NCBI GenBank assembly: GCA_963921275.4
Contig: OZ001293.3
Location: 2,144,001 to 2,208,000 of the forward strand
Direction: 5' to 3'
Origin: an uncultured Hormoscilla sp.
GTDB lineage: Bacteria; Cyanobacteriota; Cyanobacteriia; Cyanobacteriales; Desertifilaceae
Length of the DNA: 64,000 nt
The notes beneath the pieces are model-generated. The model worked only from the letters and a program-made list of their open reading frames with translations, was not told the origin of the DNA and did no database searches. Position numbers and translations under genes: made by a program. Of the stretch, positions 29,666 through 63,614 are shown in pieces (positions within the stretch are counted from its first letter, which is position 1; the number at the start of each line of letters is the position of its first letter).

Positions 29666-29667
29666 TT

Positions 29668-30300: not shown

Positions 30301-30754
30301 GCATAAAAAAGTAATTTTATGTATCAGAGACGAAAAAAACCTAAATATCCGTAAAGTCTAAGTAAGTAGGTAATTTATATTTGTTAAGATTTGTTAAATA
30401 GGTCGCAACTTGAGTTATGATAGACTTCGGTGCGACTCGTTCCGGCGTAAGTCAGAAATATGACGATAGTCGGGCTAGTATTACACCAGCACCTCAAAAT
30501 CAATTCAGCAACCAAAAAATGAAGCATAAATCTTTTACCAACACCATCGTAGTAGTGGATGCCTCCCTAGAAAACTACCAGCAGCTTATAGACGGCATCC
30601 GGCCTGGGGCCAAATCTTTCCTCTTAGATCTTCGGTCCGATGGCATCAAACAGATCGGCGAACTTCTCCGACAGCATAAAGAAACAGAGGTTCTGCACCT
30701 ACTTTCCCACGGCAGCCCTGGCTGTCTGTATCTGGGAAACTCCCAACTGAGTTT

Positions 30755-31625
30755 GGATGGGGTCGAGCCGGGAATCGCTTCCCGACCCTCCCTTGAGGAA
30801 CCGGACTTGCGATTTTCACCGCATCCGGCTACTGGGTACTAGGCCCTTTTCATAGGTAGACTTAATAGGAATTACTTCCGTTAGCCCTTGCCGCCTGTCT
30901 TTTCTTCCCTTTCCTGGTTTAGCGAGTGGTTGTTCTGATAACCGTTAGTATCACCATTTTCAAGTCAGTTTTACCAGTTATCCATACCTTATCCTCCACT
31001 TGCGTTTCGGATTAGTTCCGTGGCTTTTTAGGATTACTCATTCCAGCAGCTTCCTAGTATCACCGACCCACGTCAGCGCTGGCTACCCAGCATCATCTAC
31101 ATTACTGTAGATGTTATCCCAGGAATTACCCCGGGCATTCGCTTCTTGGGCCATCCCTCCCCCCGTGGCTTGCGCTTAACATCTAACTTGTCCTGATGGA
31201 CAGCACACGAGAGGTTACTTCGTTCCCTAACAACATTTCGCGATACCTTTAGGTCCACACTATACCCCGGGAGCTATTTGAGTACTATATTAGCCAGAGT
31301 CTAAAACTAATACTAGCTACCATTTCCTTTTTAGGCCAGCGCATATAGCCTTATTTCGCTGGTTCCTTATAACGAGGCTTGCACATGTTTGCCTGCTCTA
31401 ACCTTGGATATCTTTCCTAGCGGCGTCACCGGCTTAGGCTGCCAGTTATCCTACATTTGAGTCCTCGCTTAGCACCACGATGATGTCGCTTCGTAGCACC
31501 GAGGACCGGTGTCACCCCCGTACCTGGGGGGAGGGGAATTTAACCCCCATGCGGTCAGAGTTCCCGGCTAATGAAACCGGGCTAGCGTTCCGTGTTTGAC
31601 CACGTTAGGCTAGAACGAATCGCAC
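30755..31625 (-). mobile_element. ORF-less group II intron, copy 1 (antisense to host)
   Basis: 5' GTGCGATTCGTT, domain V AGCCGGATGCGGTGAAAATCGCAAGTCCGGTTC, domain VI hairpin with bulged A, no RT ORF. Confidence 0.93.
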
Positions 31626-32091
31626 AGATCCTCTAGGAGATTACGCCTCTACCCTGCAGAAGTGGAAGGTAAAACAACTCCTACTCTACGGCTGTAACGT
31701 CGCCGCCGGAGATGCAGGAGAGGAGTTGATGACTAAGCTACAGGCCCTGACCGGGGCATCCCTCGCCGCCTCTACTACCCGGACAGGGGCAGCAGCCCGG
31801 GGCGGAAATTGGAAGTTGGAGTGGCGAACTCCGGGGATGAAAACTCCCTTAGCATTGTCCGCAGAAGCTCAGATGGCCTATGGGGGCATATTGATCTCCC
31901 AGCAGGAGTATCAGGCCTTAAGGGCTCTCTATCAAAGCACCAATGGGGCTTCTTGGATTAACAATACAGGCTGGCGGGACTGGAATTTCAACAGCCTAAC
32001 TCCCCCCGATGCTTCTGTTGTTCATGCTCGTTGGCATGGGGTGACGGTAGCTAACGACAAGGTGATTAACCTCCGGCAGAGCTCCAACGGA

Positions 32092-32612
32092 CTGACTGGC
32101 AGCATCCCGACGGAGTTAGAGAATCTTTCCAATTTAAAGATTCTCCGGCTGTTCTCCAACCAACTGACTGGCAGCATCCCGACGGAGTTAGGGAATCTTT
32201 CCAATTTGGAGGATCTCCGGCTGCACAACAACCTCCTGACTGGCAGCATCCCGACGGAGTTAGGGAATCTTTCCAATTTGGATGTGCTCGACCTGTTCTC
32301 CAACCAACTGACTGGCAGCATCCCGACGGAGTTAGGGAATCTTTCCAATTTGGATGTGCTCCGGCTGTACGGAAACCTCCTGACTGGCAGCATCCCGACG
32401 GAGTTAGGGAATCTTTCCAATTTGGAAAATCTCTTGCTGTTCAACAACCAACTGACTGGCAGCATCCCGACGGAGTTAGGGAATCTTTCCAATTTGGACG
32501 CTCTCTTTCTGAACAACAACCTCCTGACTGGCAGCATCCCGACGGAGTTAGGGAATCTTTCCAATTTGTCATTTCTCTGGCTGAACTCCAACCAACTGAC
32601 TGGCACCATCCC
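32092..32612 (+). repeat. 72-bp tandem repeats encoding 24-aa plant-type LRRs (7 plus a partial)
   Basis: LTGSIPTELGNLSNLxxLxLxxNx. Confidence 0.9.
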
Positions 32613-32916
32613 CCAAGGGGTCATAAATTTGAGGGCTGACAAGCGATTGGAAAACCCCCCTTATGTTTTAACCGAGATTCCCGACGTCCAACTCTTGCTA
32701 GGTAATAACCTCAACATAGACATTAGCGACAACTTCTCCGACATCAATGATAACATCAACAACTACACAGCTACCGGTTTACCAGGGGGCGTAACCATCA
32801 ACTCTCAGGGAGTTATCAGCGGTACCCCTACTACCGCAGACACCTTTACCGTAACGGTAACCGCCATCGACGCAGTGAGCAATCAAGGGACAGATATCTT
32901 TAACATTGTTATAAGG

Positions 32917-35900
32917 AACTCCCCTCCTACCGATCTAGAACTCAGCAACAGCAGCATTGATTCTAACTCCCCTGATGGTACAGTTGTAGGGACTTTCTCA
33001 ACTACCGATCCTGACATTGGAATTGGAGATACCTTTACCTACCAGTTAGTCACAGGCGAGGGTGCCGATGATAACGCCGCCTTCACCATAGAAGGGAACT
33101 CACTGCAAATTAACAGTTCCCCTGACTTTGAGACCCAGTCCAGTTACAGCATCCGCGTCCAGACTACTGACTCGACCGGGAACAGTTACTCAGAAGCCTT
33201 GACTATTAGCGTCAACAATGTCAACGAGTCTCCTACCGATCTAGTCCTTAGCAACAGCAGCATTGATTCTAACTCCACATCGGGTGCAGTCGTAGGGACT
33301 TTCTCAACTACCGATCCTGACTCTTCCGATCCCTTTACCTACCAGTTAGTCACAGGCGAGGGTGCCGATGATAACGCCGCCTTCACCATAGAAGGGAACT
33401 CATTGCAAATTAACAGTTCTCCTGACTTTGAGACTCAGTCCAGTTACAGCATCCGCGTCCAGGCTACTGACTCTACTGGGAACAGTTACTCGGAAGCCTT
33501 GACTATTAATGTCAACAATGTCAACTCCTCTCCTACCGACCTAGTCCTTAGCAACAGCAGCATTGATTCTAACTCCCCTGATAATGCAGTCGTAGGGACT
33601 TTCTCAACTACCGATCCTGACATTGGAGATACCTTTACCTACCAGTTAGTCTCCGGCGCTGGTGACGATAATAACGCCGCCTTCACCATAGAAGGGAACT
33701 CATTGCAAATTAACAGTTCTCCTGACTTTGAGACCCAGTCCAGTTACAGCATCCGCGTCCAGACTACTGATGCTGGTGGGCTTAGTTACTCAGAAGCCTT
33801 GACTATTAGCGTCAACAATGTCAACGAGTCTCCGACCGACCTAGTCCTTAGCAACAGCAGCATTGATTCTAACTCCCCTGATAATGCAGTCGTAGGGACT
33901 TTTTCAACTACCGATCCTGACATTGGAGATACCTTTACCTACCAGTTAGTCTCCGGCGCTGGTGACGATAATAACGACGCCTTCACCATAGAAGGGAACT
34001 CATTGCAAATTAACAGTTCCCCTGACTTTGAGACTCAGTCCAGTTACAGCATCCGCGTCCAGACTACTGATGCTGGTGGGCTTAGTTACTCAGAAGCCTT
34101 GACTATTAGCGTCAACAATGTCAACGAGTCTCCGACCGACCTAGTCCTTAGCAACAGCAGCATTGATTCTAACTCCCCTGATAATGCAGTCGTAGGGACT
34201 TTCTCAACTACCGATCCTGACATTGGAGATACCTTTACCTACCAGTTAGTCTCCGGCGCTGGTGACGATAATAACGCCGCCTCACCATAGAAGGGAACTC
34301 ATTGCAAATTAACAGTTCCCCTGACTTTGAGACTCAGTCCAGTTACAGCATCCGCGTCCAGACTACTGATGCTGGTGGGCTTAGTTACTCAGAAGCCTTG
34401 ACTATTAGCGTCAACAATGTCAACGAGTCTCCGACCGACCTAGTCCTTAGCAACAGCAGCATTGATTCTAACTCCCCTGATAATGCAGTCGTAGGGACTT
34501 TCTCAACTACCGATCCTGACGCTGACGATACCTTTACCTACCAGTTAGTCACAGGCGACGGTGCCGATGATAACGCCGCCTTCACCATAGAAGGGAACTC
34601 ACTGCAAATTAACAGTTCCCCTGACTTTGAGACCCAGTCCAGTTACAGCATCCGCGTCCAGACTACTGATGCTGGTGGGCTTAGTTACTCAGAAGCCTTG
34701 ACTATTAGCGTCAACAATGTCAACGAACCTCCGACCTTTATAGTCCTTAGCAGCAGCAGCATTGATTCTAACTCCCCTGATAATGCAGTCGTAGGGACTT
34801 TCTCAACTACCGATCCTGACGCTGACGATACCTTTACCTACCAGTTAGTCACAGGCGAGGGTGCCGATGATAACGCCGCCTTCACCATAGAAGGGAACTC
34901 ACTGCAAATTAACAGTTCCCCTGACTTTGAGACCCAGTCCAGTTACAGCATCCGCGTCCAGACTACTGATGCTGGTGGGCTTAGTTACTCAGAAGCCTTG
35001 ACTATTAGCGTCAACAATGTCAACGAACCTCCGACCTTTATAGTCCTTAGCAGCAGCAGCATTGATTCTAACTCCCCTGATAATGCAGTCGTAGGGACTT
35101 TCTCAACTACCGATCCTGACTCTTCCGATCCCTTTACCTACCAGTTAGTCACAGGCGACGGTGCCGATGATAACGCCGCCTTCACCATAGAAGGGAACTC
35201 ACTGCAAATTAACAGTTCCCCTGACTTTGAGACCCAGTCCAGTTACAGCATCCGCGTCCAGACTACTGACTCGACCGGGAACAGTTACTCAGAGGCCTTG
35301 ACTATTAGCGTCAACGATATTCCCGAACCTTCGACCTCCATAGTCCTTAGCAGCAGCAACATTGATTCTAACTCCCCTGATAATGCAGTCGTAGGGACTT
35401 TCTCAACTACCGATCCTGACTCTTCCGATCCCTTTACTTACCAGTTAGTCACAGGCGACGGTGCCGATGATAACGACGCCTTCACCATAGAAGGGAACTC
35501 ACTGCAAATTAACAGTTCCCCTGACTTTGAGACCCAGTCCAGTTACAGCATCCGCGTCCAGACTACTGACTCGACCGGGAACAGTTACTCAGAGGCCTTG
35601 ACTATTAGCGTCAACGATGTTCCCTCACCTCCGACCTCCATAGTCCTTAGCAACAGCAGCATTGATTCTAACTCCGCATCGGGTGCAGTCGTAGGGACTT
35701 TCTCAACTACCGATCCTGACATTGGAGATACCTTTACCTACCAGTTAGTCACAGGCGACGGTGCCGATGATAACGCCGCCTTCACCATAGAAGGGAACTC
35801 ACTGCAAATTAACAGTTCCCCTGACTTTGAGACCCAGTCCAGTTACAGCATCCGCGTCCAGACTACTGACTCGACCGGGAACAGTTACTCAGAGGCCTTG

Positions 35901-38040
35901 ACTATTAGCGTCAACGATGTTCCCTCACCTCCGACCTCCATAGTCCTTAGCAACAGCAGCATTGATTCTAACTCCGCATCGGGTGCAGTCGTAGGGACTT
36001 TCTCAACTACCGATCCTGACATTGGAGATACCTTTACCTACCAGTTAGTCACAGGCGACGGTGCCGATGATAACGCCGCCTTCACCATAGAAGGGAACTC
36101 ACTGCAAATTAACAGTTCCCCTGACTTTGAGACCCAGTCCAGTTACAGCATCCGCGTCCAGACTACTGACTCGACCGGGAACAGTTACTCAGAGGCCTTG
36201 ACTATTAGCGTCAACGATGTTCCCTCACCTCCGACCTCCATAGTCCTTAGCAACAGCAGCATTGATTCTAACTCCGCATCGGGTGCAGTCGTAGGGACTT
36301 TCTCAACTACCGATCCTGACATTGGAGATACCTTTACCTACCAGTTAGTCACAGGCGACGGTGCCGATGATAACGCCGCCTTCACCATAGAAGGGAACTC
36401 ACTGCAAATTAACAGTTCCCCTGACTTTGAGACCCAGTCCAGTTACAGCATCCGCGTCCAGACTACTGACTCGACCGGGAACAGTTACTCAGAGGCCTTG
36501 ACTATTAGCGTCAACGATATTCCCGAACCTTCGACCTCCATAGTCCTTAGCAGCAGCAGCATTGATAAAAACTCCCCTGATAATGCAGTCGTAGGGACTT
36601 TCTCAACTATCGATCCTGACTCTTCCGATACCTTTACCTACCAGTTAGTCACAGGCGACGGTGCCGATGATAACGCCGCCTTCACCATAGAATGGAACTC
36701 ACTGCAAATTAACAGTTCCCCTGACTTTGAGACCCAGTCCAGTTACAGCATCCGCGTCCAGACTACTGACTCTGCTAGTAATAGTTTTGAGGAGGTCTTG
36801 ACTATTAATGTTATTGATGAAGCAGAGAATTCTTCTCCTACCTCCATAGTCCTTAGCAACAATAGCATCAACGAAAACTCTCCATTGGGTGCAGTCGTAG
36901 GGACTTTGTCTACTAGCGATCCCGACGAGGGAGATAGCTTTATCTACATGCTTGTCTCCGGCAACAATGCCTTTACTATAGTAGGGGACCAACTGCTAAC
37001 TAACAGTTCTTTGGACTTTGAGACTCAGTCCAGTTACAGCCTCCGCGTCCAGACTACTGACTCTGCTAGTAATAGTTTTGAGGAGGTCTTGACTATTAAT
37101 GTTATTGATGAAGCAGAGAATTATTCTCCTACTGATATAATTCTTAGCAGCAGCATCAATATCAACGAAAACTCCCCAGCCAATACTGTCGTGGGGACTT
37201 TCGGAACTACTGACCCCGATAATGGAGATACCTTTACCTACCAGTTAATCTCCGGCTTTGGTGCCGATGATAACGCTGCCTTCACCATAGTAGGGAACCA
37301 ACTGCGAATTAACAGTTCCCCTGACTTTGAGACTCAGTCGAGTTACAGCCTCCGCGTCCAGACTACTGACTCGACTGGGAACAGTTACTCGGAGGTCTTG
37401 ATTATTAACGTCAACGATGTCGGCGAGTCTCCTACCGACCTAGTCCTTAGTAGCAGCAGCATCAATGAAGATTCCCTATTGGGTGCAGTTGTAGGGACTT
37501 TCGGAACTACTGACCCCGATAATGGAGATACCTTTACTTACCAGTTAATCTCGGGCTTTGGTGATGATGATAACGCTGCTTTCATCATAGTGGGGGACCA
37601 ACTGCGAATTAACAGTTCTCCGGATTTTGAGACTCAGGAGATTTACAGGATATTCGTTCGGACTACCGACTCGACTGGGAACAGTTACTCGGAGGCTTTG
37701 ATTATTAATGTGAACAATGTTGCTGAGTCTCCTACTGATATAGTTCTTAGTAATGGCAGCATTAATTCTAATTCCCGTGTGGGTGCGATCGTGGGGACTT
37801 TCGGAACTAGCGATCCGGACGGGGGAAATACTTTTACCTACGGGTTAATCTCGGGTTTTGGTGACGATGATAACGCTGCTTTCACTATAGTAGGGGACCA
37901 ACTGCTAATTAATAGTTCTCCGGCTTTGGAGATGAGGTCGAGTTACAGTATCCGCGTTCAGACTATTGACGTTACTGGGGCCAGTTACTCGGAGGCTTTG
38001 ATTATTAATGTGAACAATGTTGCCGAGTCTCCTACTGACC
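32917..38040 (+). repeat. ~300-bp tandem repeats encoding cadherin-like domains (~17 units)
   Basis: 300-bp periodicity, several units nearly identical. Confidence 0.9.
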
Positions 38041-38449
38041 TTAACTTCAGCAATACTCGTCAACCCCTAACTTTCAACCCCCAACCCCTAACTTTATCAC
38101 TCTTTGAGAAGGAGGAGGAGGACACTCTGATCGGCGGGGAGGGAAGAGATCGCGTCTACGGAAACCATGGAAGCGATCGTCTCTACGAAGGATCAGAGGC
38201 CAATATTTTTGTTCTGGAGTCGGACATGATGGGTACTATCATAGACTTTGAAGATTATACGGACGGGGCTGAACGCGATCGGGCTGGACGCGATTTTTCC
38301 GGAACGGTAGATTTGGCGATCGTCTCTCAGGGCCTAGATACCTTGATTAACTTTGAAAGGGACACCCTGGTCACCCTACAGGGGATTTCAAAGATTTACG
38401 TGAGCGATCAGAATAGCACTCCTCTCCTACCGACCTAGAGCTCAGCACC

Positions 38450-38950
38450 GCAGCATTGCAGGGGACGAATTGTGGCCGTCAAATCTTGCGGTTCCCGCAG
38501 CTCGGTTCCCCTAATTTACTACCTGGGCCGCCTCTTCTCGTAAAATAATTGCTACATAGGTATCCGAGATAATCTCACCATCTCGGAAAGCCGTATCCCC
38601 CCGATACACGGGGTTAGTCAGCCACCGCCGTCCTGTAGAAACCGATATCTTCTTGCCATATCTCTTCTCCAAATAGCGCACCGCACCTCGCAAAGAACCA
38701 TACAGCAGAAATTGTGCAAAAAAATCCTTCACTACTGGCGCCGCCGCCCGATCGATCGCATAGCTATTTTTACCCCGCTTGTATCCGTAGGGTACTTTAC
38801 CCGGTGGCGGTTTACCTTGCAGGCGGTTGCGGGCATGTCCTTGACGAATGCGGCGACTGCGCTGGTAATATTGTATTTCCCGTAGCAGTTGCAGAACATC
38901 TTTGCGGTTAACTTCTGACTCTGTGGTAATAATATTAATGCCGAGGAATT
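38450..38950 (-). pseudogene. Recombinase-family (serine recombinase-like) protein fragment
   Basis: PPGKVPYGYKRG, FLLYGSLRGAVRYL, WLTNPVYRGD; cut at the IS5 end. Confidence 0.65.
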
Positions 38951-38952
38951 CT

Positions 38953-39648
38953 AGGGCGTGTCATCAGTTAGATTAACGATATGGGTCCCCACCAAAAATA
39001 TATAACAAGATGATTGAGTTGACAACCAGGATATATTGGTGTGATCTAAGAGGGTAAAGGTTAGAGCAGGAGAATTTGAGAAATGCGTCGCTATGCTTTA
39101 AGAGATGACCAGTGGGAGAGAATCAGGGACCTATTGCCAGGTCGGGAGGGTTATGTGGGGGGGACAGCTAAGGATAACCGCTTATTTGTCTATGCTGTCT
39201 TGTATCGATATAGAGCTGGGATACCTTGGCGGGACTTACCCGAGCGATTTGGGGACTTGAGGGTAATTCATACGCGCCATAGTAGGTGGTCAAAATCCGG
39301 GGTATGGGAAAGAGTATTCAAGGTACTTGCGTCCGATGCCGATAACGAATATGCGATGATTGATGCCACGATATAAAGGGCTCATCAACATAGTGCAGGT
39401 GCTCAAAAAAAAGATTGCGACCAAGCCATCGGACGCCGTAAAGGGGGTTTGAGTACCAAAATTCACGCGACCTGTGACGCATTGGGGAACCCAACGGGTT
39501 TTCATTTAACAGCTGGTCAAGCTCACGATTTGGAAGGGGCTGATGTGTTACTTGATAATATTAAGGCTGATGCGTTACTCGCAGACAAAGCTTCTGATGC
39601 TGACGAACGGGTTTTGAAACGTCTTGAAGCCCAGCAATGCGAACCCCA
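38953..39648 (+). mobile_element. IS5-family element, truncated and defective
   Basis: End AGGGCGTGTCATCA; MRRYALRDDQWERI, WRDLPERFG, IDAT, GGLSTKIHA, ADKA; internal TAA at 39374; 3' part lost. Confidence 0.85.
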
Positions 39649-39649
39649 C

Positions 39650-40491
39650 CCTGAGCTGCTGGGCAGTAGTTTCCTACTGGTTCTCGACCCAGTAGATGCT
39701 AACCAAGCCCGAGTCATAGTCCAAACAGCTAAACAGCAGGAAGTACCAGTTATTGCCTACGATCGGGCGATTTCCGATGACGATACGATGTATTACGTAT
39801 CCTTTAACAACGAGGAAGTGGGAGAACTGCAAGGAAAGTACAGAGTGGAGCAATAGGAGCAAGGAGAATACGGGCTGAAAAAAGGAGCCAAACTGGTAAT
39901 GATACATGGCTCCCCCACGGATAATAATGCCCGGCTATTCTCCGCCAAGGAGTGCTGAAAAAATTACAGCCACTGATAGATAGGGGAGACCTGCAGCTCG
40001 TTTTCGACGAATATACTCCATACTAGGACAGGAAGATAGCGGGTGATCGGATGGCCAAGATGCTGGCCAAAGAGGGGAGAAAGATAAAGATAGCTTATGT
40101 AGCGAATGATAACATGGCTAACAGCGCGATCGAAGTATTGCGGAGTCAAAAATTAAATGGTAAAGTATTAGTAACAGGACAAGATGCGGAACTATTCGCC
40201 CTGTAGAACATCCTGAAAGGGGACCAAGCAATGACCGTTTACAAACCAATTAGTCAGGAAGTAGCAGCAGCAGCCAAATTGGTAGCGGCCTTGAGCGAGG
40301 GCAGGGATCCAGGGGAGATAATTAACAGTACAACCGAAACCGCTACAGGTGGTAAAATTCCCTCAGTCCTAGTAGATGCGATCGCAGTAGACAAGGATAA
40401 CATTACAGACAGCGTAATAGCGGATAAATTCCTGTTGCTGGGGGAAATTTGTCAGGGAATAACAGTCGATCCTGGGGGAATTTGCAAGTAA
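39650..40491 (+). pseudogene. XylF-like sugar ABC substrate-binding protein remnant
   Basis: PVIAYDR, YVSFNNEEVGELQG, GSPTDNNA, VTGQDA, MTVYKP in broken frames. Confidence 0.75.
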
Positions 40492-40539
40492 TATATACTC
40501 CGAACCGTCGGGAACTGCGCTTTTCTCAACTCCCATGGG

Positions 40540-41420
40540 ATCGGGGGCGATCGCGTGAAGACCAGAAACCGGGTTTCTGCGGAAATTTTCCCATCCTCAC
40601 CGAGATAGTAAAAGAAACCCGGTTTCTCAACTCTCACTCCTTAGTCCCCCGATCGCGGTCAGACCAGAAAAAAGCGCAAGCCGATCTCGTTCCGGGTATA
40701 GTTACAAGTAGATCATAGGGGCGATCGCACTTTTATATTATAGCAGTTCTCAGATTAGTGTGATCTGCTGTCGGAGATGGATGCATCTCACTTCTAGCCC
40801 GCGCAGGCGGGCTTTGTTCCTGTAGCCGGACCCTTTAGGGTTCGGGCGGCTGTATCACATCAATTTGAGAAACGCTATATACCATGTGATTAAACATATT
40901 CGGGACTTTATGCTGCACGGATGCGAGCGGAGGCGGGAGCCTCATCAGACTGTTCCCAGGTAGAACCTGGGAACGAGAGGGTATCGGGGCGATCGCACTT
41001 TGCGGTTAAGCACCCAAATTATATCAGGTCTGATTAAATACCCATCCATAAAATTTTATCACCCGTAGGTTGGGTTGAGGCACGAAACCCAACCTACGAA
41101 AAGATCTTTTATTATGGTTAATCATCCCGACATGATATTAAATCATAATGCTATTAGTCGGTTTCAACCGACTTTAGCCTCTAGCCTTTGGGTTTGAACC
41201 CTCCGTGTATCGTGGGTAGTGCTCAACCGCGCTCCCACGATACACGGAAGACGGGCTAACAGCGAAGAAATCATCTTGGCGATCGCACTTTTATGTTATA
41301 CCATGTGATTAAACATATTCGGTACCTTATGCTGCACGGATGCCACGCTCGGAGGCGGGAGCCTCAGAAGACCGTTCCCAGGTTCTACCTGGGAACGAGA
41401 AGGTGGGCGATCGCACTTGG
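40540..41420. repeat. Mosaic of dispersed repeats and MITEs (HIP1-anchored blocks; ~100-bp direct repeat 40878-40980 / 41298-41402)
   Basis: Multiple palindromes and duplicated segments; no credible ORF. Confidence 0.7.
40741..40877. mobile_element. IS630-like MITE with TA duplication
   Basis: TAGCAGTTCTCAGATT / AATTTGAGAAACGCTA ends; matching empty site near 41290-41305. Confidence 0.7.
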
Positions 41421-41643
41421 TGCATAGGACGGTTATGGTAGAGTTACAAACATATCATCGAGGCGATTGCACCGGTTCTTCAGCTTCCGGATCGCGGGTT
41501 AGACAAGCACAGACTCTGCTGATAGAATCTTATATAATAGCCACCCAGCGCCGTAAGCACGCTTCGTGCTTACTACGAAGGAAGGGCCGCAAGCACGCTT
41601 CGTGCTTACTACGAACGGCAGACTACGAAGGAATAACATAGCC

Positions 41644-46140
<4,497 letters not shown>

Positions 46141-46351
46141 TTTGCTTGCCAATTATCAAAAATATACCATTTAAAAATAAATCCGACCGTAACGCTGCTC
46201 TTATCCGGACTTCCGCTTATTTGTAGCAGCTAAATTACCAAATGCTATTAGTCGGTTTTAACCGACTTTAGCTATTAGTTTTAACCCCCGGCGGGATGAC
46301 AGCGTAGTCAAGGAGTTTGAACTTCCCATTTCAAATACCTCAATTTTCATT

Positions 46352-48757: not shown

Positions 48758-48772
48758 AGCCGCTTTCCCCCT

Positions 48773-50256: not shown

Positions 50257-53200
50257 GGCTATGGAGTTAATCGGTTGTTCTGTTTCATGTTCTTCTAATT
50301 TGTAGCAAGTCAGCAGTAATTTCTGTAGATCTTTCCCGTCGCATTTGCACCAGGGGCCACGATGGTAAACTCATCAGAGGGGCCCAGACATCAAAATCCG
50401 GCAGTGTATAGACAAACAGTTGTTCGATATCGGGAATAGACCTAAATAATCGTAGCAAAAGTTCTGGGCAGGCGAACAGCACCCGACCACCCCGTTCCCG
50501 CACAACTGTAGCGTAACGAATAAACTGAATCACATCGCCAAAACCTTGTTCGGCATACAGGAGTATCCGGCGTCCTTGCAGATCGGCACCATCCCAACGA
50601 GGGCGTGAGAAAGCTATTTGGTGTTCTTTCTGAAAGTCCGGACATTGCCAGCGCCACTCATACTCGGCCCACCCCTGTTTTAAATCTCCTGAGAGTAGCA
50701 GTACCATGCCCAAGTTTTTGCGTGCTTTTCCGTAGTCTGCTGGCCGCAAGCCGATCGCCTCCCGATAACTGGCGATCGCCTCTTTAAGATTTCCCTTGAG
50801 ACATCCATAATTGTAGCGCCTCGCGGACTGAGACAAACACCTCTGACCAATCTTTTGCCTGGGACTGGCGAAACAAGCGCATAGTCGGATACCAGGGACT
50901 ATCCTCTCGATCTAACATCCAACGCCAGTCCGGGACGAACGGTAGCAACACCCAGACTGGTTTTCCTAGGGCCCCTGCCAGATGGGCCACTGCTGTATCT
51001 ACTGTGATGATTAAGTCTAGTTGTTGCATTGCAGCGGCCGTATCGGCAAAATCTTGCAATTCGGCATCTAAATCGATGAGATTATCTCGGCCCAATTGGG
51101 CGATTTCTGCCACCTGTTCTCCTTTCTGGAGACTATAGAAGGCAATGTCGCCGATCTCTAGGATCGGTAAAAAGTCAGATAACTTACAGGAACGGTCTTT
51201 TGCTGAGCCACTAGCCTGGTTTGTTCCCCAGACTATTCCTACTTTCTGTATCTCTTCTTTTGTTCCCTGGCGGGAGTTAGGGAACGAGAGTAAGCGCTAA
51301 AGCGCTTCTGACGGTGAATCACTCCGCAAATAAGGAATTTGGGCCGGTATGGTATCGAGGGTAGTTCCCAGAATATGAGGTAAAGTCATTAAACTTGCTT
51401 GCACGTCAAATTCTGGCCGGGGAGTTCCTTTTTCCACCAGCCTATCGAGCCCTGGGACCGTGCTAAATAACCGCAGTAATGGTTTTAGGCATTCTACTAT
51501 GACTTTCCCGCCCCGCTGCTCGACTAAAGGAACGTAGCGAATGAACTGAATGGCGTCACCCATACCTTGTTCGCAATAAAGTAGGATAGTACGTCCTTCT
51601 AGGAGCGAACCATCCCAGAGGGGTTGCTTGAATGCATAGATTGATTTTTTTTCCTGGGCATAGGTACCGCATTGCCAACGCCATTCACACTCAGCAAAAC
51701 CCTGTTTCATCTCTCCTAATAGCAACAGCAACATCCCCAGGTTATTGTGGACCAAGGCATCATCTGGACACTGGCCGAGCGCCTGCTGGAAATGCCCGAG
51801 AGCCTCCGAAAATTTTCCCAGCTTTTTCAGGGTATAAGCTAGATTATTATGGGCTTCTGGGTAGTCCGGCTTGAGGACGAGCGCCTGCTGGTACGCATCG
51901 ACTGCCTCTTCTAACTTTCCCATGAGATTGAGAATATTCCCCAGATTATGATAGGCTTCTACATAATCTGGCTGCAGGGCGATCGCCTGCCTGATATAGG
52001 TCAGGGACAATTCTAATTTTCCCTGTGTTTGCAGGGCTATTGCTAGGTTCTTATAGACCAAGGGAATGTGAGCTTGCAGGGCGAGCGCCTGTTGGTAGTG
52101 AGTAATGGCAGCATCTAACTTCCCTTGTTCATACAGGACTATTCCCAGTCCGATATGATTTTTCGGCTGGTTTGGTTCCAGAGCCAACGCTTGCTGGAAA
52201 TGCCCGCTCGCCTCTGTTAATTTTCCTTGTTCCCTGAAGACCACGCCCAAGTGACTATGGGCTTCCACGTGGTCTGGCTGCAATTGCAATACTTGACTGA
52301 AGTAGTCTGCACTTTCCTCTAGTTTACCATTCCCATGGGCGATCGCCCCCATTAAATTCAATGCTTCCGTGTTTTCAGGAGCTTGCCGAATAATTTCTTG
52401 GCACAGCTGTGCTGCTGCTGTCAACCTGCCTTCCTTGTATGCTACTAGCGCCCTGTTCGTCAACTCGCGCTCGTCAACATTATGGTTTGGGTTCAGGGCC
52501 GTGCGTCCGGGGACATCAAGCTCCCGAGAGGCGATGAAGGATACTAACGCTGCTTTCACCTCTACAAATACTCCCGTCCAATCTCCAGGCTGGGACTGAC
52601 GGAACAAACGCATGGTAGGATACCAGGGAGAGTCCTCTCGATCTAACATCCAGCGCCAGTCGTGGCTATAGGCTAGCAGGGTCCAGACTGGTTTGGCGAG
52701 GGCACCGGCTAGATGGGCTACTGAGGTGTCTACTGTTATTACTAGGTCTAGTTCTTGGATGATCGCTGCGGTGTCGGCAAGGTCATTCAGCTTGTCTCCG
52801 AGGAAGATTAGATTTTTGGCGTTGGCTTGGGGGGGTTGGGAGACTCCCTTTTGGAGGCTATAGAGGGTGATGTCTGGCAGGGACAGCAGTTGTATGAAGT
52901 ACTGGATGTCGCAGCCGCGACTGGCGTAGTCGAGTGCCTGTGGCCTCGGAGCACAGACTATGCCTACTTTGAGTTTGTCTGATGTTTGTGGGAGGAGGCT
53001 CTTTATGGCTTCGTTCTCTTCTCTTGCGTGTAGATAGGGTACTTGGGCCGGAATCTTCTCTTCGGTGGTGGTCCCTAGCAGGTAGGGCAAGCTCATGATG
53101 CGGGCACGAAGGTGATGTTCTGGCATCGATGAGGGGGGATCTTCGATGAAATCTTCGATCTCTGGTATAGTAGAGAACAATCGCTTTAATGCTGGAGAGC

Positions 53201-53987
53201 AAGCAACAATCACTTTATCACCCAACTGCTTTACCAAGGGGGCGTAGCGAATAAACTGGATGGCGTCGCCTAAGCCCGATTCTGAATAAAGCAAGATGGT
53301 CTGCCCTGGAAATGGCGAACCATCCCAAAGGGGTGCAGGCGAAAAGTGATAGATAGGCCTAGCAAATCCCGGGAATTGCCAACGCCATTCATGCTCAGCA
53401 AAACCCTGTTGCAAGTCTCCAGATAGCAGCAATGCTGTTCCTAGACAAAAATGGCCGTAGACGGAATTGGGGGCTAGGGCTATCGCTTGCCGAAAATACC
53501 CGAGCGCCTCTGTTAATTTTCTTTGTTGCCCGAGGACCAAGCCCAACTGAATATAGGCTTTCACGTCGTTAACATTATAGTTTGGGTTCAGGGCCAATGC
53601 TTGCTCTCTATGCTGCAACTTTCCCTCGTTATCAGGCCCGGCCTGGTAACGTTGGGCCAGGGTGAACCGCAATACTGCTTCCATCTCTACAAATACTCCC
53701 GTCCAATCTCCAGGTTGGGACTGACGAAAGAGGCGCATAGTCGGATACCAAGGAGAATCTGGGCGATCGCGCATCCAGCGCCAGTCAGGGGAAAAAGGCA
53801 AGAGAGTCCAAACCGGTTTTCCCAAAGCCCCGGCCAGATGGGCCGCTGCGGTATCTATAGTAATCACCAAATCCAAGAATTGGATAATCACAGCAGTATC
53901 AGCAAAGTCATTCAACTTATCTGAGAGGAAAATAATATTTTTGTTGTCTTGCAGTTCCAGGGGTTGGGGGAAATCCTTTTGGAGACT

Positions 53988-54858
53988 GTGCGATTCGTTC
54001 TAGCCTAACGTGGTCAAACACGGAACGCTAGCCCGGTTTCATTAGCCGGGAACTCTGACCGCATGGGGGTTAAATTCCCCTCCCCCCAGGTACGGGGGTG
54101 ACACCGGTCCTCGGTGCTACGAAGCGACATCATCGTGGTGCTAAGCGAGGACTCAAATGTAGGATAACTGGCAGCCTAAGCCGGTGACGCCGCTAGGAAA
54201 GATATCCAAGGTTAGAGCAGGCAAACATGTGCAAGCCTCGTTATAAGGAACCAGCGAAATAAGGCTATATGCGCTGGCCTAAAAAGGAAATGGTAGCTAG
54301 TATTAGTTTTAGACTCTGGCTAATATAGTACTCAAATAGCTCCCGGGGTATAGTGTGGACCTAAAGGTATCGCGAAATGTTGTTAGGGAACGAAGTAACC
54401 TCTCGTGTGCTGTCCATCAGGACAAGTTAGATGTTAAGCGCAAGCCACGGGGGGAGGGATGGCCCAAGAAGCGAATGCCCGGGGTAATTCCTGGGATAAC
54501 ATCTACAGTAATGTAGATGATGCTGGGTAGCCAGCGCTGACGTGGGTCGGTGATACTAGGAAGCTGCTGGAATGAGTAATCCTAAAAAGCCACGGAACTA
54601 ATCCGAAACGCAAGTGGAGGATAAGGTATGGATAACTGGTAAAACTGACTTGAAAATGGTGATACTAACGGTTATCAGAACAACCACTCGCTAAACCAGG
54701 AAAGGGAAGAAAAGACAGGCGGCAAGGGCTAACGGAAGTAATTCCTATTAAGTCTACCTATGAAAAGGGCCTAGTACCCAGTAGCCGGATGCGGTGAAAA
54801 TCGCAAGTCCGGTTCCTCAAGGGAGGGTCGGGAAGCGATTCCCGGCTCGACCCCATCC
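53988..54858 (+). mobile_element. ORF-less group II intron, copy 2 (antisense to host)
   Basis: Same sequence as copy 1; EBS1 loop AGACTC at 54311-54316. Confidence 0.93.
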
Positions 54859-56095
54859 ATAGAGAGTCATGCCAGGCAGAGAAAGCAGCAGTTTTAAAAA
54901 GTGCTTGAGATCGCAGGAACGCTTGCCGGATGTAGGATCGTTTAGTTTTGAGGCCCAAACAATACCCACTTTAAACTTATCTGACGTTTGTAGTGATCCA
55001 CTGTACTTTACGGCCTCCTCTTCTTTTGCGTATAAATAAGGAACTTGGGCCGGAATATTTTCCATAGTAGTACCCAGCAGATGAGGCAAACTCATGAGGG
55101 GGGCGCGAAAGTTAATTTCTGGCAGGGGGTCTCCATCTACGATCAAGCGATCGAGCTCTGGTATAGTAGAGAATAATCGCTTTAATGCTTGAGAGCAAGC
55201 AACAATTACCTTACCACCCTGCTGCTTTACTAAGGGGGCGTAGCGAATAAACTGGATCGAATCACCCAAACCCTGTTCTTCATAAAGTAAAATAGTCTGT
55301 CCAGCCAATGGCTTTCCATCCCAAAGGGGTACAGATAAGGAGTAATAGGGACGCTGAGCAACTTCCGACAATTGCCAACGCCATTCATACTCAGCAAAAC
55401 CCTGTTGCAAGTCTCCAGATAGCAGCAATGCCATTGCTAGACCCCAATGGCCGTAGACGTAATTGGGGTCTAGGGCTAAGGCTTGCCGAAAATGCCCGAT
55501 CGCCTCATCTATCTTGTTCTGTCCTGTCAGGGTATCACCATAGATGCAGAGCAATTGCGGGCTATTGGGTTTCAGGGACAGGGCCTGACGATAATAACCG
55601 CTCGCCCGTTCTAGTTGACCAGTTCGATAATATAGCTGGCCTAGCAGCTGCATAACATTAACATTATACGGTTCTTGCTGGAGAATTTGGTGGTAACTCC
55701 GTTCGGCATCCTCCAACTTTCCCGCTTGGTAATGGGCCAGGGCGATCTGCAATTGGGAATTTGTATCGTAGGTTTTTTCGGGTGTCAACGGGACTGGGGA
55801 AATAGTTATTGAATCCCTCTGCTGTGGGGACAGGTTTGACATTAGCAGTGCCAGGTTATTACGAGCTTCTAGGTAATCTGGGCGCAGGCTGAGTGCTTGC
55901 TGCAAGTGCCCGATCGCCTCATTTATCTTACCTGTTTCTACTAAGGCTATGGCCATGTTATTATGCAATTCAGGATTGGCCGAGTTTAAGGCTAGGGACT
56001 GTTGGTATAATTGAATCGCCCGTTCGTACTGGCCCTGAGAATAGGCTCCCCACCCTAGGATGCGCAGGACATCTGCATCATTGGGGTGCTGCTGT

Positions 56096-56966
56096 GAATG
56101 GGGTCGAGCCGGGAATCGCTTCCCGACCCTCCCTTGAGGAACCGGACTTGCGATTTTCACCGCATCCGGCTACTGGGTACTAGGCCCTTTTCATAGGTAG
56201 ACTTAATAGGAATTACTTCCGTTAGCCCTTGCCGCCTGTCTTTTCTTCCCTTTCCTGGTTTAGCGAGTGGTTGTTCTGATAACCGTTAGTATCACCATTT
56301 TCAAGTCAGTTTTACCAGTTATCCATACCTTATCCTCCACTTGCGTTTCGGATTAGTTCCGTGGCTTTTTAGGATTACTCATTCCAGCAGCTTCCTAGTA
56401 TCACCGACCCACGTCAGCGCTGGCTACCCAGCATCATCTACATTACTGTAGATGTTATCCCAGGAATTACCCCGGGCATTCGCTTCTTGGGCCATCCCTC
56501 CCCCCGTGGCTTGCGCTTAACATCTAACTTGTCCTGATGGACAGCACACGAGAGGTTACTTCGTTCCCTAACAACATTTCGCGATACCTTTAGGTCCACA
56601 CTATACCCCGGGAGCTATTTGAGTACTATATTAGCCAGAGTCTAAAACTAATACTAGCTACCATTTCCTTTTTAGGCCAGCGCATATAGCCTTATTTCGC
56701 TGGTTCCTTATAACGAGGCTTGCACATGTTTGCCTGCTCTAACCTTGGATATCTTTCCTAGCGGCGTCACCGGCTTAGGCTGCCAGTTATCCTACATTTG
56801 AGTCCTCGCTTAGCACCACGATGATGTCGCTTCGTAGCACCGAGGACCGGTGTCACCCCCGTACCTGGGGGGAGGGGAATTTAACCCCCATGCGGTCAGA
56901 GTTCCCGGCTAATGAAACCGGGCTAGCGTTCCGTGTTTGAGCACGTTAGGCTAGAACGAATCGCAC
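56096..56966 (-). mobile_element. ORF-less group II intron, copy 3 (sense to host)
   Basis: Near-identical to copy 1, with differences seen at ~56941 and in the 3'-terminal TC. Confidence 0.93.
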
Positions 56967-57455
56967 AGAATCCTCAAGTATATCTGTTCTGCTTCCCTTA
57001 CTTGTCCTCTTTGGTAATGGACTGCTGCTTGGGAAATTAATTGAGAATATTCTCTCGGAGAGTTAACTTGCTTCGATTTTTCGCGTAGCGTTCTCCTGCC
57101 AACTTTGAGTTTTTTCCTTTTGCCGCGCTTTGCCATCCTGTTTTCCCTTCTCCTGCCATTGTAATCTAACTTGTAAGGGGCACAAAATCGCTGAAGCCCT
57201 TATCATGCAAGGCTTATACCTCTATTCAGCAAGCCCTAGTTAGCATAAGCATAACCAATTCTCCCTCCAGAAAGCGCCAAGTTTAACAATACTTTACAAA
57301 ATCTTAATAATAAACCGCTATGGAGCCTTGGCACCGGCGATTTCAACAGGGGGGCCTTAGACTGGCAACTGCTGCTAATGTCGTCAGGGCGCCGGTCTTG
57401 GCCTCTGGCCCCAATGCGATCGCGTAGCGTGCGCGCAGCGCATTCGCCCCTAAAA

Positions 57456-58322: not shown

Positions 58323-58351
58323 TCTGAGATTTCTCCTTACCTACAACATCA

Positions 58352-61300: not shown

Positions 61301-61534
61301 AATTCCCAAGTCATCGACCAGGAAGGCGGAAAACTCATCTCTTGTTAACTGTCCCGGATGGCGATTTGCGGACGGTGTCCCCGGAGTAGTGCGAGTAGCG
61401 CTCTCCGGGGACACCGGCTGTCTTTTACGGCTTTTTGGGGGGGGATCCGAAGTTTCCACCCACAGATAAAAACCACCATTTTGGATAAAATCATCTTCCC
61501 CTTGGGGTATCCAGGTGCCGTGCAGAATTTTCAT
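58352..61534 (-). CDS. SNF2-family helicase
   Basis: MKILHGTW, LREYQ.RGV.W, LADDMGLGKS, DEAH, LTGTPVEN, LKAGGVG, DRWWNPAVE.QATDRA. Confidence 0.92.
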   Translation of the reverse strand: MKILHGTWIPQGEDDFIQNGGFYLWVETSDPPPKSRKRQPVSPESATRTTPGTPSANRHPGQLTRDEFSAFLVDDLGIAKSPDLSEQISPKYFILPSTEGAPLPSVELIRYLEVEPEEPSQWQAWEIDCYQVKAVIKALSDLYFLALHNSSEIGLGADLLFWYHYTQSFKQVILKDQYIPAFKYRELPATKGKGKKKPPAWEIYTGWEIISEQYESQIAAYIDYMPLACVSGKASPEREFYDRPTLLRHFSECLLQNIVVNTPWTAAFDKKISGSQLLSRSIHCPVSQQNSPEVLAEYQQWQGWKEKLIGAQTAAAFHLVFQLESPQSENVDDDWQIKFLASLKKDPSLKLDLVDYWHLAPAAKKAMQKQFGRDFEKDLLLNLGYAARMYPKIWTGLETDRPVGFLLTITEAFAFLKESAWVLEDAGYKVMVPAWWTPAGRQRAKIRLRASSSKKAVSSAGKGYFNLQTIVQYEYELAIGGQAVSAEEWQQLVNVKTPLVKFRGQWMELDQNQMQQMLDFWATHSEEQPEMTLLDLWKKTAEDMKEWELEPDATLGEMMAGLHDPSKLEPIANPPQLQGTLREYQKRGVSWIQYLEQLGLNGCLADDMGLGKSLQVIGRLVTERDLENTGDRIPPTLLIAPTSVVGNWQKEIEKFAPHLQSMIHHGRNRIEDETIFQAASLKQDIVITTFTLARKDIKLLQKVTWQRIVLDEAHNIKNHKTAQTQAILKLTAHHRLALTGTPVENRPLDLWSIFNFLNPGYLGKEAQFRKNFEQPIQKENNKIQARVLKKLVEPFILRRVKTDKQIIKDLPDKVELKQYCNLTQEQASLYEAVVKDVEKQLQEVEGIQRKELTISTLIKLKQICNHPRQYLQDGSEFSPDRSHKFARLGEMTEEVISEGESLLIFTQFTEIGEALQKYLKLTMRYNTYYLHGGTSRTKREQMIAEFQDPETDPTAFILSLKAGGVGITLTKANHVFHFDRWWNPAVEDQATDRAFRIGQEKNVFVHKFVTLGTLEERIDQMIEDKKKVASAIVGSDESWLTELDNESFKQLIALNRQAIL

Positions 61535-61685
61535 GGCATAATGAGGTCCGAATCGGTCTAGCTTACAATGCCAGTTCGCGAAAGTCAAGCAGTGTCGTAG
61601 CCATTGTCTGTCACTCCCTCTAACTCCACAGGCGCGGCCTGCCGTGCCGTAGTCATAGCCTCCCAGAAGTGCGAGGATCCTTTAC

Positions 61686-63614
61686 CTCTATCCATCCTGG
61701 TGTGAGTCTGTGCGATTCGTTCTAGCCTAACGTGGTCAAACACGAAACGCTAGCCCGGTTTCATTAGCCGGGAACTCTGACCGCATGGGGGTTAAATTCC
61801 CCTCCCCCCAGGTACGGGGGTGACACCGGTCCTCGGTGCTACGAAGCGACATCATCGTGGTGCTAAGCGAGGACTCAAATGTAGGATAACTGGCAGCCTA
61901 AGCCGGTGACGCCGCTAGGAAAGATATCCAAGGTTAGAGCAGGCAAACATGTGCAAGCCTCGTTATAAGGAACCAGCGAAATAAGGCTATATGCGCTGGC
62001 CTAAAAAGGAAATGGTAGCTAGTATTAGTTTTAGACTCTGGCTAATATAGTACTCAAATAGCTCCCGGGGTATAGTGTGGACCTAAAGGTATCGCGAAAT
62101 GTTGTTAGGGAACGAAGTAACCTCTCGTGTGCTGTCCATCAGGACAAGTTAGATGTTAAGCGCAAGCCACGGGGGGAGGGATGGCCCAAGAAGCGAATGC
62201 CCGGGGTAATTCCTGGGATAACATCTACAGTAATGTAGATGATGCTGGGTAGCCAGCGCTGACGTGGGTCGGTGATACTAGGAAGCTGCTGGAATGAGTA
62301 ATCCTAAAAAGCCACGGAACTAATCCGAAACGCAAGTGGAGGATAAGGTATGGATAACTGGTAAAACTGACTTGAAAATGGTGATACTAACGGTTATCAG
62401 AACAACCACTCGCTAAACCAGGAAAGGGAAGAAAAGACAGGCGGCAAGGGCTAACGGAAGTAATTCCTATTAAGTCTACCTATGAAAAGGGCCTAGTACC
62501 CAGTAGCCGGATGCGGTGAAAATCGCAAGTCCGGTTCCTCAAGGGAGGGTCGGGAAGCGATTCCCGGCTCGACCCCATCCACCTCCGACAGCCAATTCAA
62601 CAAATCTGACTGATTGGTAATCTCAAAAATTCTATCTGTTAACTCTTCTAAATCCGACAGCGACAAACTTTCAATTTTGCTGTTGATTTCCGCTGTCATT
62701 TCACCAAATTTATTTTTGAGCAGGCGCATTGCTAAAGCGCTTGCTTCAGCAATGCGTCCTCGTTCAATCCCTTGTTCAATCCCTTGTTCAATCCCTTGTT
62801 CAATCCCTTGTTCAATCCCTTGTTCAATCCCTTGTTCAATCCCTTGTTCAATCCCTTGTTCAATCCCTCGTTTAAGTCCTTGTTCCCAGGCTTCTTCACT
62901 GGCATATTTCATCCGTCCTATCTCATCTTGCAAATAAATCGAGCGACGAATTACTTCATCTGCTTCCTCCGGTTCCATATTGGCTAGTTTGGCTATCTTT
63001 AAGGCTTTTTCGATTTCGGCAATCTCTCCCAATGTCGGCGGGATTTCTTCTAACTCATTTGCCAGCTTAATGAAGTAAATCCATTTCTCTGCTAAGGTCG
63101 TCAAGTCTTTCAACTCTTTTTTGAATCTGGGTAATTCCACAAAAAATAGCTGTAGTTCTCGCTGGGGATATTCATAATTTCCCTGGGCTTCTTTGAACAC
63201 AAAATGATGAATCACTTGCGGGTTTTGGTGGAAGAGAACAAAGTTGGTTATTGTTACCGCAATTACTGGCGATATCTTCAGGTAATCTTCTCCTGATTCC
63301 AACTGGTTGGCATAGGACTTACAGAGATTATAAGCCACCCGCTTATCGAATGCCGCTACCCGTGCTAATTGCATTTCGATCAGGACGATTTCCCCATTCT
63401 GTAGTACCGCCCTCACATCCAAGTAACTGTCCTTTAATGTCTCTACATGACCTTGGTTGTAAGGATTGACAATGGTTAAGGTAGAAATGACCTTTTCGCC
63501 ATTATAGATGATGGCATTCAGAAAACTAATCAAAATATCTTCACTTCGGTCCGAGCCAAAGATTTTTTTGAAGGCATAATCGATTGTGGGACTGATAAAT
63601 ATTTGCTTGGCCAT
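61686..63614 (-). CDS. Rpn-family PD-(D/E)xK putative nuclease with DUF4351 tail; last codons separated by antisense intron copy 4
   Basis: FISPTIDYAFKKIFG, LDVRA, IEMQ, FVELPRF; removing 871 nt gives ...WLSEVDSHQDG*. Confidence 0.8.
61710..62580 (+). mobile_element. ORF-less group II intron, copy 4 (antisense to host)
   Basis: Near-identical to copy 2 (one visible SNP near 61745); 5' exon ends GAGTCT, a perfect match to EBS1. Confidence 0.93.
62762..62868 (-). repeat. 12-bp tandem repeat encoding (EQGI)n
   Basis: GTTCAATCCCTT x ~9. Confidence 0.9.

Follow-up and report, generated by a model that had tools for sequence, protein, structure and literature searches.

How does a sequence that encodes no protein of its own come to lie at four places in a short stretch of a bacterial chromosome, in copies that hardly differ from one another? 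The question is raised by a 64,000-nt stretch of the genome of an uncultured cyanobacterium, Hormoscilla sp. (contig OZ001293.3 of GenBank assembly GCA_963921275.4, positions 2,144,001 to 2,208,000 of the forward strand; hereafter the window), in which an 871-nt unit, here called family A, recurs four times (Table 1). Judged from its sequence this unit is a non-autonomous group II intron without an open reading frame (ORF-less), and we consider it likely that its copies stem from a real and recent burst, most likely mobilised in trans by a reverse transcriptase (RT)/maturase encoded elsewhere on the chromosome.

Table 1. Positions of the introns, their parts and the genes discussed, in window coordinates (EBS, exon-binding site; GT9, glycosyltransferase-9)
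Feature	Position	Strand	Remarks
Family A copy 1, 871 nt	30755..31625	-	antisense within the DUF4347/LRR/cadherin gene; RF00029 44.4 bits
Family A copy 2, 871 nt	53988..54858	+	antisense, at about codon 469 of the TPR/GT9 gene
Family A copy 3, 871 nt	56096..56966	-	sense, at about codon 56 of the TPR/GT9 gene
Family A copy 4, 871 nt	61710..62580	+	antisense, replaces the last ~6 codons of the PDDEXK_2/DUF4351 (Rpn-type) gene
Candidate EBS2 (AUAAGG) of copy 2, hypervariable 6-mer	54243..54248	+	unpaired domain I stretch, 63-68 nt upstream of EBS1
EBS1 (AGACUC) of copy 2	54311..54316	+	terminal loop of a covarying domain I hairpin; intron positions 324-329
Domain IV of copy 2, 231 nt, no ORF	54549..54779	+	covarying basal helices (helices 29-31)
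Domain V, domain VI and 3′ end of copy 2	54784..54858	+	domain V at 54784-54813, the A before it completing the AGC triad; 3′ end ...CGACCCCAUCC
Family C copy 5, diverged ORF-less relative, 835 nt	43962..44796	+	RF00029 47 bits at 44718-44795
5′-truncated family A fragment	63961..64000	+	intron positions 394-433; 40/40 nt identical; runs off the window
DUF4347/LRR/cadherin-repeat surface protein gene (5′ part), host of copy 1	30417..34290	+	continues out of frame at 34302-38438
TPR + glycosyltransferase-9 protein gene, host of copies 2 and 3	51297..57136	-	1365 codons after removal of both introns
PDDEXK_2 + DUF4351 gene (Rpn-family nuclease / putative transposase), host of copy 4	61688..63644	-	
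pam68 (DUF3464) gene, intact in the window	11384..11839	+	Pfam E 7.6e-55

Copies, boundaries and predicted fold of the 871-nt unit

All four copies reported in the original prediction were recovered at the same coordinates and on the same strands, each 871 nt long and with 0–3 differences among them. Copies 1 and 2 are identical, copy 4 departs from these two by a single change (36 G>A) and copy 3 by two (26 G>C and 870 C>T), the largest pairwise difference being 3/871. Identity among the four window copies is 99.7–100%; when they are aligned with 50-nt flanks, the cores are the same and the flanks are unrelated. The 5′ end GTGCG (GUGCG in the RNA) is found in all five full-length elements of the window and in every element examined at related loci, and the boundary rule GTGCG...CCCCxxCY, then the 3′ exon, is confirmed by two window sites that are empty where a sister genome, GUM202, carries introns (see below). 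At the family A sites the 5′ exons end in GGATCT, GAGACT, GATTCT and GAGTCT and the 3′ exon begins with A in all four cases, just as had been described. Exact excision of 871 nt regains a long reading frame at each of the four sites and reveals no target-site duplication at any of them, which agrees with the earlier claim that such duplications are absent.

Rfam models and manual folding had been proposed as a check on the intron assignment, which an Rfam match and predicted folds uphold. Model RF00029 (domains V/VI) scores 44.4 bits for each of the four family A copies and 47.0 bits for a fifth, diverged copy, above the gathering score of 40, and AGCCGG at the base of domain V supplies the AGC triad that, together with the GUGCG start and domains V and VI, the original prediction had named. 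On copy 2 domains I to V measure 401, 56, 88, 231 and 30 nt, with domain VI following. The single-sequence fold reaches −302.6 kcal/mol (z = −2.9 against 20 shuffles), and the consensus of a comparative fold contains 222 pairs, running from domain I to domain VI, with 97.6% of cells paired; the alignment behind it holds eight full-length ORF-less elements from the window and related loci, which represent some five independent lineages. As many as 81 of the 222 pairs stay paired despite changes on both sides, compared with 39.3 ± 3.5 in shuffles (0/500 reach 81), and sliding the partners by 1–3 columns leaves 3–12 covarying pairs; the structure was predicted from the same eight-row alignment as was used for this count, which somewhat favours the fold. 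Selection has maintained this six-domain architecture in at least five subfamilies. Domain V also gives matches below threshold to plastid D5 models, and the model group-II-D1D4-2 matches at 22 bits versus a gathering score of 36. We assign family A tentatively to the cyanobacterial chloroplast-like (CL)/IIB type.

The unit lacks coding capacity, its longest open frame being 58 aa. Domain IV is 231 nt long and not ~100 nt as had been stated, and the claim that it lacks an ORF stands. Within the window no RT was found by tblastn with a 608-aa related intron-encoded protein (IEP) (best E 0.65), and a Pfam search of the 44 window ORFs returned no RVT domain.

Host genes, insertion orientation and target choice

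Copy 1 splits the Pfam domain DUF4347 of its host, with profile positions 1–73 encoded before and 110–164 after the intron on the + strand, and its excision produces a 1001-aa frame on that strand (113 + 888 aa) versus at most 64 aa on the − strand. The cadherin-repeat gene itself (31726–38438) holds about 17 tandem 300-nt units of 63–100% identity. In one case (33922 to 34221) successive units are 299 nt apart, and the frame is lost between ORF 31726–34290 and ORF 34302–38438, reflecting either a prior pseudogene or a repeat-length error.

The hosts had been called unrelated genes, which is not the case for copies 2 and 3, as both sit in one and the same 1365-codon TPR/GT9 gene. Excision of copy 2 alone yields a 1333-aa frame on the − strand and excision of copy 3 alone one of 503 aa, and when both are removed the − strand frame extends to 1386 aa, 1365 codons of which are counted from an ATG at 57136. 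A 1980-aa homologue (P0001) aligns gaplessly through both junctions, and the junction at copy 3, EQIYLRILQQ/HPNDADV, is the same in that protein. Short TPR and glycosyltransferase-9 ORF fragments and a 183-nt repeat family (70–77% identity) are scattered around the intron-hit gene (29223–29970, 50285–51113, 52609–52791 and 53734–53916) and appear to be parts, or paralogous segments, of that gene family.

Excision of copy 4 restores a 385-aa frame on the − strand whose C-terminus, ...LLNWLSEVDSHQDG, is identical to the end of the GUM202 orthologue (P0241), a protein 84% identical to that of the window which aligns gaplessly through the junction, and the site is therefore empty in the sister strain. 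This empty site supports a recent insertion. A multi-copy homing site in PDDEXK_2 paralogues was considered and found no support: the seven relatives listed have other C-termini and none of the proteins compared ends in an intron-derived tail. The same gene carries a 12-nt tandem repeat (62734–62925) that encodes (GIEQ)n, a 32-aa expansion relative to the GUM202 orthologue.

Copies 1, 2 and 4 are antisense to their hosts, a point absent from the original prediction, and are therefore not spliceable from the host mRNA; within family A only copy 3 is in the sense orientation. Copy 1 disrupts the DUF4347 domain and with it the gene, copy 2 truncates the TPR protein mid-gene and copy 4 alters only the tail of its host, and copy 3 alone among the family A copies depends on splicing. 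The orientation of insertion relative to host genes (3 antisense, 1 sense in family A) looks unconstrained.

Two further intron pieces in the window had been missed in the earlier list of four copies. Over its first 560 nt copy 5, identified by repeat finding and pairwise alignment, matches family A at ~82% identity, and it has deletions of its own. It lies in the sense orientation, with four codons left to the stop of a UvrD/PcrA-type helicase gene, in a stretch shared by the 3′ ends of this gene and of a convergent FGGY-kinase gene, and its excision gives an 805-aa frame on the + strand. All five full-length window copies are thus inside coding sequence. The second piece is the 5′-truncated fragment at the right edge, the sequence upstream of which is not intron, and this 40-nt fragment was all that a sensitive blastn sweep of the window found besides the five copies, using nine queries (five ORF-less subfamilies, two pieces of RT-bearing introns and two pieces of a family D).

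The family A EBS1 pairs with the four intron-binding sites (IBS1) at 4.5, 5, 5 and 6 of 6 positions (G-U counted as 0.5), and about 0.5% of random window sites reach a pairing of at least 5/6. Only copy 4 (GAGTCT) has a perfect IBS1, the other three having one mismatch, or one mismatch and a wobble. EBS1 changes from subfamily to subfamily (UCUAGA in A2, GUCUUC in B, UGCACU in C and GUCAUC in E) and each version fits its own 5′ exons; in copy 5, for example, UGCACU meets an exon ending in ...GTTGCA. Averaged over ten elements with five EBS1 variants, EBS1/IBS1 pairing is 5.25/6 within a family versus 2.03 across families. The pairing of AGACUC with the 5′ exons that had been claimed is thus confirmed for family A, and EBS1 covaries with the exons across five subfamilies. 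A candidate EBS2 differs in every subfamily and pairs only modestly better with its own sites than with those of other families (4.3/6 versus 3.09, with a spacing to IBS1 of 0–2 nt), and the +1 base varies inside subfamilies A2 and B. The imperfect IBS1 at three family A sites fits ectopic retrotransposition, and the antisense landing of three of the four copies would follow, since imperfect ectopic targets chosen by base pairing can lie on either strand.

These data also bear on whether the repeats could have spread as DNA, in the manner of an insertion sequence (IS) or a miniature inverted-repeat transposable element (MITE) or with the help of the neighbouring Rpn/PDDEXK nuclease, or could be an assembly artefact, which the original prediction had named as a possible refutation. 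Copy 4 does abut the PDDEXK_2 ‘putative transposase’ gene, and IS630-type genes are present in the window. The copies lack both terminal inverted repeats and target duplications, however, their ends are those of a group II intron (GUGCG and domain VI), and their choice of target tracks an RNA pairing that covaries with EBS1. An artefact is ruled out by the unique flanks of each copy, which rejoin into conserved proteins, on a contig of 6.88 Mb. We give this explanation in all its forms hardly any credence.

Related loci, candidate helper proteins and rival explanations

Related loci were collected by scanning a genome collection with a domain V pattern that covers both window variants. At least nine loci were obtained, and among the matches listed all come from two Hormoscilla metagenome-assembled genomes (MAGs), GUM202 and SP12CHS1. 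They include the sister ORF-less subfamilies A2 (L006 and the outer intron of L007), B (L008 and the inner intron of L007) and E (L003) and partial copies of family D. A2 is 91–93% identical to family A, and the ORF-less subfamilies are 78–82% identical to one another. Among plasmids, a distant-mode blastn search of 72,556 records with the 871-nt unit gave no match.

The window belongs to neither of the two MAGs, but one of these loci (L008, in GUM202) is syntenic with the window at 7–13 kb and ~94% identical to it. Here the pam68 gene of GUM202 (L008:1294–4883) carries two sense introns 260 bp apart, an RT-bearing intron of 2405 nt and an ORF-less family B intron of 925 nt, and their positions correspond to empty sites in the window gene at 11521/11522 and 11781/11782. 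As pam68 is a conserved and presumably needed photosystem II assembly gene, the presence of two sense introns argues, if indirectly, that both may be spliced in vivo.

Other loci show introns within introns, in L007, L009 and probably L001. In the twintron of L007 (2280–4078) an ORF-less family B intron (2593–3517, − strand) lies antisense in the EBS1 hairpin of an A2 intron (+ strand), and this insertion should, by its position, disable the outer intron; the inner one has two substitutions that break two domain V pairs. In L009 (1–180) an RT-bearing intron ends with its domains V/VI (1–75), and directly after it come the final ~100 nt of an intron of ORF-less type, from just upstream of the domain V of the latter. 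The RT-bearing intron is therefore inserted, in sense orientation, into domain IV of the ORF-less-type one; as the contig starts at this point, the 5′ side falls outside the sequence. In L004 an IS630-family transposase gene (DDE_3 + HTH, 4654–5667) interrupts domain I of an ORF-less-type intron (3959–6380), and the edge of the locus (1–759) holds the 5′ portion of another intron that bears an RT.

With copy 5 and the sister loci at hand, the near-identity of the family A copies can be set against the main rival explanation, namely that old insertions have been homogenised by gene conversion between neighbouring copies (concerted evolution). Six related pieces within 34 kb, in both orientations, would be ample substrate for recombination, and the differences of copy 3 lie at its extreme ends (26 and 870), as expected if conversion tracts homogenise the interior. 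Yet the GUM202 orthologue lacks an intron at the copy 4 site, copy 5 has remained only ~82% identical and thus unhomogenised at a distance of 10 kb from copy 2, and no inversion has occurred between the inverted copies 2 and 3, all three exons of their host being collinear on the − strand. In addition, family A is not among the at least nine sister-genome loci listed, the best of which reach 91–93%. Old insertions maintained by conversion are, in our judgement, very unlikely.

Mobilisation in trans would require a suitable RT/maturase. The RT-bearing intron of GUM202 (L008) encodes a protein with RVT_N, RVT_1, GIIM and HNH domains that scores 350.8 bits with TIGR04416, the NCBIfam equivalog for group II RT/maturases (cut-off 300), and whose best solved relative is 6ME0 chain C (E 1.6e-114, residues 4–558), which we take to be the T. 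elongatus TeI4h particle. Its frame (L008:1303–3126) extends across domains V and VI to a stop 9 nt short of the intron 3′ end, and the C-terminal tail EEPDEVKVSxPVLKTSRxGDxLA is conserved in those IEPs that are not shortened. Closer to the window, for eight of the best 120 RT/maturase clusters the longest contig measures 6,879,066 bp, which is also the figure for the window protein P0111. In an alignment of the eight with the GUM202 IEP the motif RYADDFVV (YADD) is invariant (9/9). Two members, P0124 and P0140, are full-length with intact HNH histidines; in P0130 and P0135 the HNH motif reads EVDQ rather than EVDH, P0135, P0157, P0149 and P0153 are without the N-terminus, and P0142 and P0153 are shortened at the C-terminus. 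RT-bearing introns are thus present in the sister genome GUM202, and from the contig figure we infer them in the genome of the window as well.

The burst could have proceeded as follows. The RT/maturase of RT-bearing relatives on the same chromosome would bind and splice the family A RNA, the resulting lariat–protein particle would reverse-splice into DNA at sites set mainly by EBS1/IBS1 and weakly by EBS2/IBS2, and the RT would then copy the inserted RNA into DNA by target-primed reverse transcription. The near-identical copies, the EBS1-matched sites, the lack of an RT in the window and the RTs of GUM202 and the eight clusters all support the relaxed-specificity retrotransposition in trans put forward in the original prediction.

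It may be that this activity has already ceased, the copies being inert remnants that have lost their helper RT or are no longer recognised by it, in which case the gene with the sense copy 3 would be broken too. The RT-bearing introns we know of form a separate lineage, several RT clusters of the 6.88-Mb contig are truncated (501–558 aa) or carry EVDQ for EVDH, and the host genes look dispensable or already damaged (frameshift 34290/34302). Pairing at copy 3 is also imperfect (IBS1 5/6; IBS2 three Watson-Crick pairs and one G-U of six). On the other hand, with 0–3 differences among the copies any loss of the helper must have been very recent, at least two IEPs (P0124 and P0140) look intact, and the ribozyme structure has been kept by compensatory changes across the subfamilies. 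We regard a finished burst as unlikely.

Several observations weigh against a recent burst driven in trans, which we nevertheless prefer. Family A proper is not found among the at least nine loci listed (best 91–93%), and its near-identity in the window could partly reflect gene conversion. Group II introns typically, if not strictly by definition, end in AY and have, close to the 3′ end, a branch-point A that bulges from domain VI. The family A intron departs from the first of these norms in ending in ...AUCC (UUCC in copy 3; another subfamily ends in ...UAAC), and in the Rfam alignment a GA is unpaired in the 3′ strand of domain VI, its A, the putative branch point, lying 9 nt from the verified 3′ end. 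No clear ORF remnant that would mark the unit as a deletion derivative was found at the level of protein similarity, and the sole ORF-like trace, a 4-codon stub (ATG GAT AAC TGG TAA) that aligns near the RT start region, is doubtful. EBS2/IBS2 pairing lends weak support (4.3 versus 3.09, with variable spacing) and EBS3 was not located. The two readable RT-bearing introns of GUM202 are 86% identical to each other over their 5′ 600 nt but only ~70–77% identical to any ORF-less subfamily over the alignable 5′ 500–600 nt. The RTs are assigned to the chromosome of the window by the shared 6,879,066-bp figure alone, and mobilisation of family A in trans, like its splicing and mobility, is predicted from sequence.

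The ~70–77% identity also fails to support the idea that family A is a recent deletion derivative of the GUM202 RT-bearing introns. As the ORF-less subfamilies are closer to each other (78–82%) than to these introns (70–77%), they would therefore appear to be a separate and old lineage. A bolder reading, which we advance tentatively and hold to be possible but somewhat doubtful, is that this is an old and self-sustaining RT-less lineage with at least five EBS1 variants that has diversified apart from the RT lineage it needs, still jumps at ordinary temperatures into either strand of genes and contributes to the erosion of a host-restricted symbiont's genome.

The window shows some further features. 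The cyanobacterial HIP1 palindrome GCGATCGC occurs 55 times, with ~1 expected from base composition, which together with the synteny to L008 points to a related cyanobacterium as the source of the window. An IS630-type transposase at 9709–10655 is split into two ORFs (HTH_Tnp_IS630, then DDE_3) and a 135-aa ORF at 39449–39856 fuses a DDE_Tnp_1 fragment to a periplasmic-binding-protein fragment, both being further signs of mobile-element damage. An intergenic 77-nt inverted repeat pair (6826–6902 and 63808–63884, 79% complementarity), one arm of which lies just upstream of the 63961–64000 fragment, is possibly a small dispersed repeat. Rfam CRISPR-DR28 matches at 40795–40818 (36.6 bits versus a gathering score of 35) and also in a Hormoscilla locus (L002:1345–1368). 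We rejected a CRISPR locus at 40795–40818, where there is a lone GC-rich hairpin and no array, with 0 rows from Tandem Repeats Finder for 38400–41600.

Comparison with known systems and implications

Much of this behaviour has a precedent in Thermosynechococcus elongatus, as described in the passages of PMC2882425 drawn on here. Its genome has 28 group II introns, 17 of them ORF-less and derived from one deletion, which form families defined by EBS, one with seven identical copies, and the ORF-less introns are mobilised in trans by ‘driver’ IEPs (TeI3 by TeI4 IEPs; Mohr, Ghanem & Lambowitz 2010, PMC2882425). Twintrons and an IS-interrupted intron occur there as well, and few introns lie within genes (PMC2882425). 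Like the introns studied here, ORF-less TeI3 members outnumber RT-bearing ones, fall into EBS-defined families including one of identical copies, take part in twintrons and IS interruption, and include a few insertions with poorer IBS matches that were read as retrotransposition (PMC2882425); the likeness to TeI3/TeI4 is one of described behaviour rather than of compared RNA sequence. The two systems differ in that few T. elongatus introns are in genes, whereas in the window all five are in coding sequence with three antisense, and in that the T. elongatus ORF-less introns have clear N- and C-terminal ORF remnants, as opposed to the doubtful four-codon stub of the window family (PMC2882425). 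Nesting differs too: the T. elongatus twintrons described have ORF-less introns inside RT ORFs, and in Hormoscilla an ORF-less intron sits antisense in an EBS1 stem (L007) and an RT-bearing one in domain IV (L009) (PMC2882425). Trans-mobilised ORF-less introns are accordingly known already from T. elongatus, going by those passages (PMC2882425), and what differs here is the host lineage, the placement of all five full-length copies in coding sequence with three antisense, and the kinds of nesting.

Other filamentous cyanobacteria are comparable. Group II introns number up to 101 in Arthrospira platensis and 24 in Trichodesmium, with CL-type IEPs dominant in cyanobacteria (Miura et al. 2022, PMC8919778), and a twintron is described from Trichodesmium (PMC4649490). 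They share with Hormoscilla the many introns, some ORF-less members, twintrons and, tentatively, CL-type IEPs (PMC8919778, PMC4649490), but these surveys count introns per genome and the passages concerned give neither the orientation to host genes nor a near-identical ORF-less burst (PMC8919778). Proliferation of group II introns in the host-restricted Wolbachia and Orientia, as cited in PMC8919778, offers a parallel of another kind, as Hormoscilla is uncultured and presumed to be an obligate sponge symbiont (PMC6520454). Both would be cases of mobile-element build-up in presumed obligate symbionts, in different phyla (PMC8919778, PMC6520454), and for the organism of the window we infer symbiosis solely from its similarity to Hormoscilla MAGs. 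Among the papers searched, none joins Hormoscilla and group II introns, and in the main texts of two Hormoscilla genome papers (supplements aside) the words intron, transposase, pseudogene, mobile and reverse transcriptase are absent.

Spliceosomal introns and retroelements without long terminal repeats (non-LTR) are believed to descend from group II introns, which few bacteria possess in large numbers. The best-studied proliferation, that of T. elongatus, depends on high temperature and placed few copies in genes. Hormoscilla looks like a second, independent cyanobacterial system, with several RT-less subfamilies, nesting and a very young intragenic subfamily that is mostly unspliceable. If the predicted activity is true, then mobilisation in trans, divergence of the target loops and the cost of intron spread could be studied in a possibly host-restricted lineage not known to be thermophilic. 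There is also a practical warning for annotation, as three genes of the window are split or altered by introns and gene callers would read them as truncated or extended ORFs. In eukaryotes a short interspersed nuclear element (SINE), a non-coding retroelement, borrows the RT of a longer autonomous relative (a long interspersed nuclear element, LINE) and can outnumber it. The mechanism is unrelated in detail, as the family A RNA would itself be the ribozyme that chooses and enters its DNA target, but if the reading of an old RT-less lineage is true, these introns would be a bacterial counterpart of the SINE/LINE pair and a natural model for a genome overrun by introns under relaxed selection.

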